Source: a virus. From it: a stretch of DNA of 64,000 bases. Below are positions 3,835 to 25,251 of the stretch, piece by piece. The translations under genes and the position numbers were made by a program. Where the stretch lies: the IMG/VR virus record IMGVR_UViG_3300024255_000006, positions 1 through 64,000 of that record; one strand, written 5' to 3'. Position 1 is the first letter of the stretch; each line of letters begins with the position of its first letter. Under the pieces are notes generated by a model. It saw nothing but the letters and a program-made list of their open reading frames with translations, searched no databases and was not told the DNA's origin.

Positions 3835-4085
3835 GTAAAGTAAGAGTAATTCGTGAAGATTGTGATCCAGAATTGGCGCAAGACAGAACACTTCCTAACA
3901 CCACATTTCTAATAGAGTATGAGAAGGATGGGAAAACTTGTTACGATATTTCTATTCCAAGAAAGATAGTGGACATGTTTGATTACTACTGGGACAAATA
4001 TAAACATGGACTAAAGGGATGGACTCAAACTGAAGGAAGATCTAACCCAAAACTATGGGTAGATCCACAAGATAAGAAAAAATAG
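3816..4085 (+). CDS. Hypothetical protein
   Basis: 89-aa ORF with GRSNPKLW motif, in operon. Confidence 0.7.
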   Translation: MGKSILSKVRVIREDCDPELAQDRTLPNTTFLIEYEKDGKTCYDISIPRKIVDMFDYYWDKYKHGLKGWTQTEGRSNPKLWVDPQDKKK

Positions 4086-4705
4086 TGCTTTATCAAAAAG
4101 AATATACAAGTATCTTCCACGTTCACATACCAAGAACTGCTGGAAGATACATTAGAAATATCTTTCTTGATAATAAATTTGATGGTAAGTATCTATCTTA
4201 TGATGAATTCTATAGAGGTATAGAAGTTCCTCACTTACATTATCCATTGTATAACGACCTTTCATATGTTGAAAACTCCAATCACTTTGCTGTGGTAAGA
4301 GATCCATTTGAAAGATTCAAGTCGTCAATGCAATTGATGATTAGAGCAATGAATTATCCAGTCGAATTGTATGATAAGTTAAAGGACAAAGATTGGTTAT
4401 TTAATTTTCTGAATCACTCTCGTGATTACAAACAGTATCATCAAAATCATTTTAGAAAACAATCTGATTTTATATCTGCAAGAACACACGTCTATAAATT
4501 TGAAGATGGATTAGGTATAGAACTCATAGACTGGTTGAATGATAGACTAAACCTAGATCTAAATCGGACTGAATACAGGTATGAAATCTTCCATCCTCAT
4601 TCGATTAGTGGCGAGGAGTTACCAAACAAAAAAGATATTGATCCCATAGTTGAGAATTGTATTAGAGATTATTACTCAGATGATTATGAGAATCTTAAGT
4701 ATTAA
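4085..4705 (+). CDS. Sulfotransferase-family protein
   Basis: FHVHIPRTAG (5'-PSB-like) and VRDPFERFKS (3'-PB-like) motifs. Confidence 0.75.
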   Translation: MLYQKEYTSIFHVHIPRTAGRYIRNIFLDNKFDGKYLSYDEFYRGIEVPHLHYPLYNDLSYVENSNHFAVVRDPFERFKSSMQLMIRAMNYPVELYDKLKDKDWLFNFLNHSRDYKQYHQNHFRKQSDFISARTHVYKFEDGLGIELIDWLNDRLNLDLNRTEYRYEIFHPHSISGEELPNKKDIDPIVENCIRDYYSDDYENLKY

Positions 4706-4723: not shown

Positions 4724-4726
4724 TAT

Positions 4727-4755
4727 TTGCACACACTAAATAGATATGGTATAAT
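4727..4755 (+). promoter_or_regulatory. sigma70-like promoter
   Basis: TTGCAC-17 nt-TATAAT; predicted start near 4762. Confidence 0.75.
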
Positions 4756-4762
4756 TACCATA

Positions 4763-4805
4763 CGTTCATCCCCCGCAAGGAGGACGCAAGTAAGTCGCGG
4801 AACGG
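4763..4805 (+). ncRNA. Glutamine-riboswitch-like element, copy 1 (glnA / Downstream-peptide class)
   Basis: P1 CGTTC/GAACG, P2 TCCCCC-GCAA-GGAGGA, linker CGCAAGTAAG. Confidence 0.6.
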
Positions 4806-4808
4806 AGC

Positions 4809-4991
4809 CGTTCATCCTATGTTAGAACTATTATTCTATTCATCACTCACCTGCCAACAAGCTGATACAATCATGCTGAGGATGGAAGCAAATGAGAATA
4901 TCTCAAATGCTTTTAAGGTAGAGTTGATTGAGGTCATGAAGGAGTCAACTCCTGATTGCTATCCATGGGACGCACACGACTGAAGGAACGG
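4809..4991 (+). ncRNA. Glutamine-riboswitch-like element, copy 2, with a large P2 insert
   Basis: CGTTCATC...GACGCACACGACTGAAGGAACG; P2 TCCTATG/CATGGGA encloses an ORF. Confidence 0.55.
4819..4983 (+). CDS. 54-aa hypothetical protein nested in riboswitch-like copy 2
   Basis: MLELLFYSSLTCQQAD...CYPWDAHD*, ATG 4819, TGA 4981-4983. Confidence 0.6.
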   Translation: MLELLFYSSLTCQQADTIMLRMEANENISNAFKVELIEVMKESTPDCYPWDAHD

Positions 4992-5024
4992 GGATTAAAA
5001 ACCCTAACTTCAGGAGACTGACAA

Positions 5025-5192
5025 ATGAACACACTGCAAATGATCAAGAAGCAGATCAACAAAGCATCTGCACTTCACGACGCACAGATTACCCACACTT
5101 CATATCGTGGTGTTGAGTATACTACACGTTGTGTCGAATTAAAGGAACCCCACGGCACATTCTGTTATCGTGGTCGTACCTACAGTAAGTGA
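5025..5192 (+). CDS. YRG-motif peptide, DUF4278 / GifB(IF17)-like
   Basis: 55 aa with SYRGVEY and CYRGRTY; CAGGAG SD; downstream of riboswitch-like RNA. Confidence 0.75.
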   Translation: MNTLQMIKKQINKASALHDAQITHTSYRGVEYTTRCVELKEPHGTFCYRGRTYSK

Positions 5193-5213: not shown

Positions 5214-5238
5214 GAAGGGTTAACACCCTTCTTTTTTT
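5214..5238 (+). terminator. Intrinsic terminator
   Basis: GAAGGGT-TAAC-ACCCTTC followed by a T run. Confidence 0.85.
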
Positions 5239-24733: not shown

Positions 24734-25020
24734 GTAGTCCTGATGGATGACTCTAAAAGCCATGTAGGTGACGCCATCGACATTTCGGACAGGAGTTCGA
24801 TTCTCCTCGCTTCCACTCATGGGGGCGCACTGGTTTCGACGGGGTACACGGAGCGTGACTGAAACCTGCTTGGATAAGCAACCAATAGATGCAAAAACAT
24901 CTGATGTCGCTGCGAACAACATCGTAGCATTCTCCCGCAGCACCGTTGCTGCCTGAATGGGAGATCGGGGTTAGACTAGCCTTGTTACCCAAATAGTCCT
25001 CTGGGGGTGTAACGCCCCCT
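24734..25020 (+). ncRNA. ssrA: Circularly permuted two-piece tmRNA
   Basis: T-arm AGGAG-TTCGATT-CTCCT and acceptor 3' strand CGCTTCCA (24808-24815) precede the 5' end GGGGGCG..TGGTTTCGAC (24821); tag ANNIVAFSRSTVAA* at 24912-24956. Outer ends approximate. Confidence 0.9.
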
Positions 25021-25025
25021 CCTAC

Positions 25026-25097
25026 GCCCCTGTAGCTCAGTGGTAGAGCAGGGCTTTTGTAAAGCTCAGGTCGTCTGTTCAAATCAGATCGGGGGCT
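25026..25097 (+). tRNA. tRNA-Thr(UGU)
   Basis: Cloverleaf, anticodon loop TT-TGT-AA; CCA not encoded. Confidence 0.92.
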
Positions 25098-25100
25098 TGT

Positions 25101-25173
25101 GGGGAATTAGCTCAGATGGTAGAGCGCCTGCTTTGCAAGCAGGATGTCAGGAGTTCGAGTCTCCTATTCTCCA
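25101..25173 (+). tRNA. tRNA-Ala(UGC)
   Basis: Cloverleaf, G3-U70 pair, anticodon TGC. Confidence 0.95.
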
Positions 25174-25178
25174 CTCGA

Positions 25179-25251
25179 TCCTCTATAGCTCAGTTGGTAG
25201 AGCACGGAACTGTTAATTCTGTTGTCCCTGGTTCGAGTCCAGGTGGAGGAG
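25179..25251 (+). tRNA. tRNA-Asn(GUU)
   Basis: Cloverleaf, anticodon loop CT-GTT-AA. Confidence 0.93.

Follow-up and report, generated by a model that had tools for sequence, protein, structure and literature searches.

A glutamine-I riboswitch aptamer that is predicted to assemble across a complete protein-coding gene is located in an early leader of a T4-like cyanomyovirus (Kyanoviridae). It was detected in a stretch of 64 kb, here called the window, whose nearest relatives are ACG-2014e/i/j and S-CAM4; the record to which the window belongs is a 135-kb viral contig that is ~70% complete and contains the element as one copy. The 5′ half of the first and the 3′ half of the second of two repeat copies very probably form one canonical glutamine-I aptamer, and the ORF lying between these halves (4819–4983) is, with the same high joint confidence, a real protein-coding gene. 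As the sensor core is predicted to form only by joining the 5′ and 3′ sides of this ORF, the start and stop codons of the gene would be built into the sensor. For the explanation as a whole, comprising the split aptamer, the nested gene, an ON switch for the downstream gene and a coupling of translation to sensing, a probability of roughly 0.7 is estimated.

All features described in the following are located on the plus strand. A short early transcript of the phage probably extends from the promoter end at 4755 to a terminator at ~5231, with the riboswitch-bearing segment as its leader. A sigma-70-like early promoter was found by a consensus scan (4726..4755; −35 TTTGCA/TGCACA and a TG-extended TATAAT −10), and its 3′ end is located 7 nt upstream of CGTTCA, with a predicted transcription start at ~4761–4763. 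A TATAAT-like box is present 7–8 nt upstream of CGTTCA in all relatives inspected. The transcription unit of ~475 nt is closed by an intrinsic terminator (5214..5238) and contains two small ORFs, 4819–4983 and 5025–5192. The second one encodes a DUF4278/IF17-like YRG peptide of 55 aa (5025..5192; phrog_545, E 6.8e-36; T4-GC 937), homologous to Syn9 gp198, and its Shine-Dalgarno sequence AGGAG (5012..5016) has an 8-nt spacing to the ATG at 5025. The match to Pfam DUF4278 is sub-threshold (21.4 bits, cut-off 25.3), the homologue in S-SSM5 carries the DUF4278 annotation, and a comparison of the peptide with PDB sequences gave no meaningful match. This DUF4278/IF17-like ORF is the likely gene under riboswitch control.

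Across the 64 kb, CGTTCATCC occurs at 4763 and 4809 only (0.34 expected), and GACGCA-N10-GGAACGG occurs twice, at 4783–4805 and 4969–4991 (0.00 expected). The first-pass annotation had reported these two repeat copies as starting at the predicted transcription start, together with long-range arms enclosing a complete 54-aa ORF with its ATG in the 5′ arm, and both were recovered with the sequences and positions it gave. The arms TCCTATG (4815–4821) and CATGGGA (4964–4970) are complementary and are paired in the unconstrained minimum free energy (MFE) structure. The stop codon TGA (4981–4983) falls within GACTGAAGGAACG (in the RNA, UGA within GACUGAAGGAACG) and is placed in the aptamer core. The tandem reading, in which the two aptamers are independent and the P2 of copy 2 holds the ORF, is not supported, as covariation favours a strand-swapped, nested fold.

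The two arrangements are referred to as fold A and fold B. Fold A is the tandem, with copy 1 at 4763–4804 and copy 2 formed by a P1 (4809–13/4986–90) and a P2 that encloses the ORF. In fold B, the outer P1, P2, E-loop and P3 are combined with an inner hairpin and the long-range helix that encloses the ORF. Unconstrained folding of 4761–4994 gives fold B as the MFE structure (−63.8 kcal/mol), and fold A is 1.4 kcal/mol less stable; since this gap is so small, both of them may occur in marine phages.

In fold B, the P1 5′ strand CGUUC of the outer aptamer (4763..4767), which is invariant and paired in 40 of 40 sequences, pairs with the GAACG at 4986–4990. The P2 hairpin UCCCCCGCAAGGAGGA (4769..4784) lies directly 3′ of CGUUCA and shows many compensatory variants among relatives, including CCC/GGG, CAGAG/CUCUG, CAAAGG/CCUUUG and CUCAC/GUGAG. 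It is followed by the invariant junction core CGC and the E-loop 5′ half AAGUA (together 4785..4792, AAGUA at 4788–92), both mapped onto 5DDP, and by the P3 5′ strand AGUCG (4793..4797), which pairs with the P3 3′ strand CGACU (4977..4981) in 100% of these 40 sequences. The E-loop 3′ half GAAG (4982..4985) has the same register as the UGAAG of the crystallised 5DDP RNA and takes up the GA of the stop codon UGA (4981–4983); it is followed by the P1 3′ strand GAACG with the linchpin G4991 (4986..4991), which pairs with C4787. AGUA and GAA are brought together by fold B only. Furthermore, AAGUA-AGUCG (4788–97) and CGACU-GAAG-GAACG (4977–90) match the register of the crystallised glutamine-I RNA, CGGAAGUA-AGGCCC...GGGCCU-GAAG-CAACG, for which sequence and contacts were taken from the literature (5DDP; PMC5393176). 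The ligand-contacting P1 pairs C1:G59 and G2:C58 are present (4763–67/4986–90), and the ligand-contacting positions C1, G2, G22, C58 and G59 are all retained in the phage RNA. Mapped onto 5DDP and the contacts published in PMC6698751 and PMC5393176, G4786 would be the ligand-contacting G22 and C4787 the linchpin position 23.

Between the two P3 strands, fold B contains the inner P1-like hairpin GAACG-GAGC-CGUUC (4800..4813), the 5′ arm UCCUAUG of the long-range helix, i.e., the inner P2 (4815..4821, with the start codon at 4819–4821 inside), its 3′ arm CAUGGGA (4964..4970) and an inner core ACGCA(CA) (4970..4976). The latter is a copy of the junction core; it encodes Asp-Ala-His codons and has zero entropy even at synonymous sites. 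The pairing of GAACG (4800) with CGTTC (4809) had been regarded as one of two mutually exclusive folds; the pair itself is real, and it turned out to be a conserved part of the favoured fold rather than merely a competing alternative. In this reading, the ORF 4819–4983 belongs to the P3 domain, where it is enclosed by the P2-like helix of an inner module that resembles an aptamer. This module (CGUUCA, helix, ACGCA, GGAACGG) is a copy of the core with circularly permuted topology, in which P1 is capped by a 3–4-nt loop. The conservation of the module extends to synonymous sites and argues for a role of some kind.

Covariation was evaluated in an alignment of 40 sequences (A1), in which the three helices specific to fold B are paired throughout and show compensatory changes. 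In P3, one pair is GC in 37, GU in two and AU in one sequence, and another is CG in 39 and UA in one; other lineages add the variants AAUCG/CGAUU, AGUUG/CAACU and GUCAA/UUGAC, and the class AGCCGAC/GYYGACU has two recurrent C.A mismatches. The inner hairpin is paired in 100% of the sequences, with a compensatory change from GC (37 sequences) to CG in the three sequences of the S-PRM1 lineage. One pair of the long-range helix is CG in 30, UA in five and UG in five sequences. The covariation observed for the fold-B helices in A1 was reached by no shuffle. The arm pairing that the earlier annotation had expected to be conserved in related phages amounts to at least 5 bp in 139 of 139 unique marine sequences, and the freshwater arms are UCUAUG/CAUAGA. 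The E-loop 3′ half is AAAG, with a UAA stop codon, in 47 of 146 relatives.

The nested ORF (4819..4983, 54 aa) belongs to phrog_504 (E 1.1e-28) and to T4-GC 430, an annotation that is also carried by its homologues in Syn1, S-SSM5 and S-SM1; in Syn9 the homologue is gp197. Its body shows a dN/dS of 0.19, and both alternative frames are interrupted by stop codons in 61 of 61 unique sequences. The diversity at third positions drops from 0.273 in codons 2–49 to 0.019 in the last five, and the final stretch TGG GAC GCA xAC GAC T(G/A)A AGGAACGG has zero entropy except at two sites. These five codons and the stop codon coincide with the inner core, with the 3′ strand of P3 and with a portion of the E-loop, and the synonymous sites, which are frozen over this overlap only, carry the signature of an overlapping RNA constraint. 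An AlphaFold (AF2) model of the protein is a two-helix hairpin (pLDDT 84), and two cysteines are invariant in the family. The nested proteins with this two-Cys helical hairpin have hydrophobic N-termini, suggesting that they are exported or associate with membranes. In total, 88 homologous clusters were found, all of them unnamed, and the ESM Atlas likewise returned unnamed clusters only; there was no Pfam match, the PHROG carries no function, and Foldseek gave no PDB match at E <3. A regulatory leader peptide of the attenuation type was considered and rejected due to the length of 53–58 aa, the conserved residues, the dN/dS of 0.19, the PHROG family and the confident helical model.

The initiation region of the nested gene is also part of the fold. 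A Shine-Dalgarno-like GGAG is formed by the loop and the last stem G of the inner hairpin (4800–4813); it is not conserved in the freshwater lineage. Pairing involves all three bases of the nested AUG in about half of the marine sequences and at least the A in every one.

The expression platform is predicted to be a stem-loop (4980..5013) that represents the OFF state and is contained in the MFE structure. CUGAAG (4980–4985) pairs with CUUCAG (5008–5013), and GGGG (4991–94) with CCCU (5002–05) in the apical part. CUGAAG runs from the end of P3 through the stop codon into the E-loop, and CUUCAG overlaps the Shine-Dalgarno sequence AGGAG (5012–16), the first two bases of which are in the helix. 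In the general form of this helix, CU[G/A]AAG/CUU[C/U]AG, the covarying pair is made up of the second base of the stop codon and its partner. Among 146 unique marine-type sequences this pair is GC in 71, GU in 28, AU in 47 and AC in none, and its states changed many times on a tree calculated from coding sequence in the flanks. Of 14 phylogenetically independent contrasts, ~11 show the partner following and none shows it opposing (sign test p ~0.001). The OFF helix cannot coexist with P3, the E-loop or P1. When fold B is enforced, the unpaired probability increases from 0.19 to 0.93 for the downstream AUG and from 0.41 to 0.60 for the Shine-Dalgarno sequence, so that the opening predicted for the latter is modest. 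The freshwater lineage has a different predicted platform, an invariant anti-Shine-Dalgarno pairing CUCUUU/AAGGAG that starts at the linchpin C. A further possible pairing in the MFE structure, GUUCAU (4764–69) with AUGAAC (5025–30), is constrained on both sides.

As the OFF helix excludes P3 and the E-loop, a glutamine ON switch is implied, and such a switch for the IF17-like gene is considered probable. Glutamine riboswitches typically act on DUF4278 genes, and the ON direction was shown experimentally for the host gene gifB (PMC6212724). The proposed mechanism starts from a type-I aptamer interrupted by a very long insert, with P1, the E-loop, P3 and the linchpin being joined across the ORF 4819–4983. 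Without ligand, CUGAAG (4980–85) would pair with CUUCAG (5008–13) and cover the start of the Shine-Dalgarno sequence of the DUF4278 gene. Folding of P3, the E-loop and P1, stabilised by glutamine, would withdraw CUGAAG and set the Shine-Dalgarno sequence free. The folded aptamer would at the same time hold the nested AUG in a helix and the GGAG in the inner hairpin.

The stop codon is part of the switching sequence, and the five codons before it belong to the aptamer core. To complete the nested gene, a ribosome would therefore have to melt both the aptamer and the OFF helix. A coupling of translation and folding had already been suggested in the first-pass annotation; the mutual exclusion follows from the geometry and stands, and the architecture differs, the ORF being located in the P3 domain of the outer aptamer instead of the P2 of copy 2. 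By this geometry, translation of the nested gene and sensing would be physically coupled, and the coupling may be used for regulation by reciprocal expression, resetting or translational coupling. The analysis itself shows the fold (by covariation), the coding status of the ORF, the alternative helix and the geometry of the overlaps; such regulatory use, glutamine binding and the ON direction are inferred.

A more elaborate version of this reading is a two-site, strand-swapped glutamine sensor that is repeatedly unfolded and reset by ribosomes on the genes in P2 and P3; it is put forward tentatively and is rather doubtful. In it, the hairpin 4800–13 would be a loop-capped P1, 4815–21/4964–70 the P2 and ACGCA (4970–74) the core, with G4805 as the linchpin partner of C4973, giving a circularly permuted second aptamer that shares P3 with the outer one. 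A single leader would then respond to both the glutamine level and the activity of translation, with reciprocal control of two or three small phage proteins: the nested genes would be favoured at low and the IF17-like protein at high glutamine.

At the other end, the nested ORF could be passive cargo in a tolerant peripheral loop of a compact genome, in which case the fold and the ON switch would stand with no regulatory interplay and the overlaps of codons and helices would be due to crowding. The compact, ORF-free versions of the element show that the aptamer needs no ORF, group I introns similarly tolerate ORFs in their loops, and the complete helix pairing of the nested AUG in just about half of the marine sequences fits as well. 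However, the placement of the AUG in the 5′ arm and of the stop codon in the 3′ arm or core is kept in two different helices, in marine and freshwater phages and with homologous ORFs, and the stop codon lies within a covarying, switching helix, so that a terminating ribosome unavoidably perturbs the switch. The cargo explanation is for these reasons regarded as unlikely, and the coupled arrangement is preferred.

Two independent tandem glutamine aptamers, i.e., fold A, are far less probable still. Both copies carry CGUUCAUCC, GACGCA and GGAACGG, the energy of fold A is close to the MFE, and tandem glnA RNAs are on record (PMC2864571). However, neither copy of fold A has a complete E-loop or P3, the E-loop halves being split between the copies, and the P3 covariation is left unexplained. 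In A1, the three S-PRM1-type sequences have a mismatch in both P1s of fold A. No pair that discriminates fold A covaries.

The clearest distinction is provided by the linchpin, the long-range pair closing P1, which would correspond to positions 23:60 in glutamine-I and C19:G41 in glutamine-II (PMC6698751). It is C:G in 152 unique marine sequences and G:C in 78 unique freshwater-type sequences. The marine sequences have ACGC...GAACGG in both copies and are uninformative between the folds (152 unique). In the freshwater type, copy 1 has ACGG and GAACGC follows copy 2, whereas copy 2 has ACGC and GAACGG follows copy 1. Fold B fits 78 of these 78 sequences, whereas fold A would give G.G and C.C at its two linchpins in all 78. 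The swap between marine and freshwater phages is probably a single ancient event, though a double compensatory one.

Membership in the known families was evaluated with Rfam, in which the glutamine riboswitch (RF01739) has a gathering score of 35 bits. At the gathering threshold, no glutamine match was found in the whole window. A permissive search detected copy 1 only (20.8 and 20.4 bits) and no match for the split aptamer, and the copy-1 scores of ORF-bearing relatives were 18–29 bits, all sub-threshold. The element is missed by covariance models because the insert of ~180 nt is penalised and the scores fall below the threshold. Above-threshold scores were obtained in compact relatives: RF01739 matched the compact ACG-2014f (L215) with 41.1 bits, joining the 5′ part of copy 1 to the 3′ part of copy 2 in the outer register, and it matched L245 with 40.3 bits and L232 with 36.4 bits by accepting the second copy alone. 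For this reason, Rfam cannot separate folds A and B. The Infernal search proposed in the first-pass annotation was in this way above threshold in compact relatives only and sub-threshold for copy 1 of the window itself; its assignment of a glutamine-riboswitch RNA 5′ of a YRG/DUF4278 peptide is supported. That the conserved RNA is no metabolite sensor at all, e.g., a protein-binding or processing site resembling a glutamine aptamer, would agree with the sub-threshold copy-1 scores in ORF-bearing phages and with a position 23 that departs from the type-I consensus but is hardly credible, as compact relatives exceed the curated threshold, the ligand-contacting positions are all kept, the 23:60 change is compensatory and matches glutamine-II, and the DUF4278 context is canonical.

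The whole arrangement was found in 414–415 cyanophage GenBank records and in hundreds of IMG/VR viral contigs with >200 unique sequences, including a freshwater lineage. This recurrence across cyanophage records, viral contigs and the freshwater lineage argues that the gene-in-aptamer layout is not due to chance. In 132 of 139 unique marine-type sequences there is an ORF of 53–58 codons, with GACGCA starting exactly 12 nt before the stop codon. In the freshwater lineage, a homologous nested ORF of ~50 aa ends with GAC GCA AAA GCC GAC UGA. Prochlorococcus myovirus-like contigs also bear the element. A host origin was considered as well: a pattern scan of genome contigs gave 36 matches, most of them without the other aptamer parts, and the element was not found in a host chromosome among them. 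The picocyanobacterial SAG and MAG matches are on phage-sized contigs, and L256 is P-HM2-like phage DNA.

Several variants separate the RNA from the ORF. In S-CAM1 and S-CAM3 the ORF ends 16 nt early and the 3′ half of the RNA continues as non-coding sequence, in L132 the ORF is broken and the RNA halves are intact, and in ACG-2014f the ORF is absent and replaced by a GAAA-capped hairpin. These exceptions show that selection acts on the RNA motif regardless of what is encoded and that the ORF is dispensable for the RNA. Compact, ORF-free versions were found in ACG-2014f, L228, L245 and 26 unique freshwater sequences.

The true P2 encloses an ORF of 59–68 aa in Syn9 (gp196), S-CAM1, S-CAM3 and S-IOM18 as well as in many contigs of metagenomic and freshwater origin. 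Its AUG is located in the 5′ arm and its stop codon 4–16 nt before ACGCA, and the arms around it covary (UCUUAUG/CAUAAGA vs. UCUCAC/GUGAGA). The P2-nested and P3-nested proteins are homologous over a Cys-helix-loop-helix-Cys core (hhalign probability 92.8%, E 4e-7), which suggests that an aptamer and its gene were duplicated as one unit.

Glutamine riboswitches are already known, as is their link to DUF4278/IF17 genes; the nested, strand-swapped aptamer that encloses a gene appears to be new. Tandem glnA RNAs were mentioned in 2010 (PMC2864571), and a survey from 2017 listed just two glutamine aptamers in cyanophage genomes (PMC5473149), compared to which the presence of the element in >400 cyanomyovirus records extends the riboswitch use of phages. 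No ORF inside a glutamine aptamer, no nested or strand-swapped fold and no genes in aptamer helices were found in the literature searched, and an earlier mention is possible. The ligand-binding core would be assembled across a complete selected gene and, in Syn9-like phages, across two genes, so that, if confirmed, translation and metabolite sensing would act on the same nucleotides in a natural system. The expression of two small protein families (phrog_504 and gp196-like) would be tied to predicted glutamine sensing, and the IF17-like protein provides a handle on how cyanophages may tune the nitrogen metabolism of the host. Syn9 is a cultured model phage with the full two-gene version.

Riboswitch aptamers are normally compact, non-coding and contiguous. 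The phage RNA shares with glutamine-I (glnA RNA, RF01739; 5DDO/5DDP) the P1 CGUUC/GAACG, P2, the junction CG(N)AAGUA, the AGUA/GAAG E-loop flanking P3, the long-range pair closing P1, the location upstream of a DUF4278/IF17-like gene and, probably, the translational ON switch. Unlike glutamine-I, its P3 is not a short hairpin but a domain of ~180 nt that includes a P1-like hairpin, repeats the core and accommodates an entire protein-coding gene, some phages hold a second gene in P2, the linchpin of marine phages is C:G as in type II, and only with a small insert do the scores reach the Rfam threshold. With glutamine-II (Downstream-peptide motif, RF01704), which precedes YRG peptides in marine picocyanobacteria and matches the phage RNAs with 20–32 bits, it has CGUUCA, a hairpin, CGCA, GGAACGG and a C:G long-range pair in common; unlike glutamine-II, it lacks the pseudoknot hairpin enclosing GGAACG and has the type-I E-loop and P3.

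The two core copies per leader, and a possible second ligand site, resemble the two-aptamer glycine riboswitch, but the phage copies are nested and strand-swapped, not side by side, the leftover strands form a capped hairpin, and a gene lies inside. In the Mg2+ leader of mgtA in Salmonella, translation of the leader ORF mgtL changes which helices form. Unlike such short regulatory peptides, which are encoded in the expression platform, the phage ORFs encode conserved proteins of 50–68 aa that are under purifying selection (dN/dS 0.19) and are located inside the aptamer helices. Group I and II introns assemble a structured or catalytic core across an ORF in a peripheral helix. Their ORFs encode mobility or maturase proteins, whereas the phage RNA is predicted to be an mRNA leader sensor; if confirmed, the peripheral helices of an aptamer can host genes in the way intron loops do.

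The 5' strand of the glutamine-I-type aptamer contains the hexamer GUUCAU (4764-4769), which is complementary to AUGAAC at 5025-5030, i.e., to the start codon and the following Asn codon of the downstream DUF4278 gene. In the unconstrained minimum free energy structure these two segments are paired, and the pairing may provide a second layer of start codon masking when the ligand is absent. On its upstream side, the riboswitch promoter is adjoined by an ORF (4085-4705) with a match to phrog_3347 (galactose-3-O-sulfotransferase, E 4e-15) and a Pfam Sulfotransfer_2 score of 19.6 bits, which is under the Pfam cut-off. This ORF resembles a sulfotransferase gene and is a candidate auxiliary gene of an unusual kind.

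Many of the gene calls for the nested ORF in metagenomes (e.g., the protein clusters P0013, P0017, P0022, and P0028, among others) have a length of 75-91 aa instead of 53-55 aa. Such calls probably begin at an alternative start codon further upstream and continue across the aptamer, and the long versions would likely be a systematic annotation artefact of this family. In two rare contigs (L132 and L331), the nested ORF is interrupted, resulting in products of 21 aa and 20 aa, respectively, with intact RNA halves on both sides; this could be explained by gene decay or by assembly errors. In the freshwater lineage, the ORFs nested in P2 carry an N-terminal hydrophobic, signal-peptide-like segment (MTKALLLLAWVPLL... 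in the contigs L264, L267, L270, L280, and L282), which hints at export or membrane anchoring of the small two-Cys protein family.

Elsewhere in the window, a permuted tmRNA of the cyanobacterial type (RF01851, 135 bits; RF04321, 89 bits) is directly followed by three tRNA genes (25026-25097, 25101-25173, and 25179-25251), the whole group spanning 24735-25251.

The full version of the element is present in the model phage Syn9 (DQ149023), at positions 488-1134 of its locus L219, where gp196 is located within P2, gp197 within the P3-domain helix and gp198 (DUF4278) downstream. A TATAAT box is found 8 nt 5' of CGUUCA, ahead of all three genes. Syn9 is thus a ready system for experiments.
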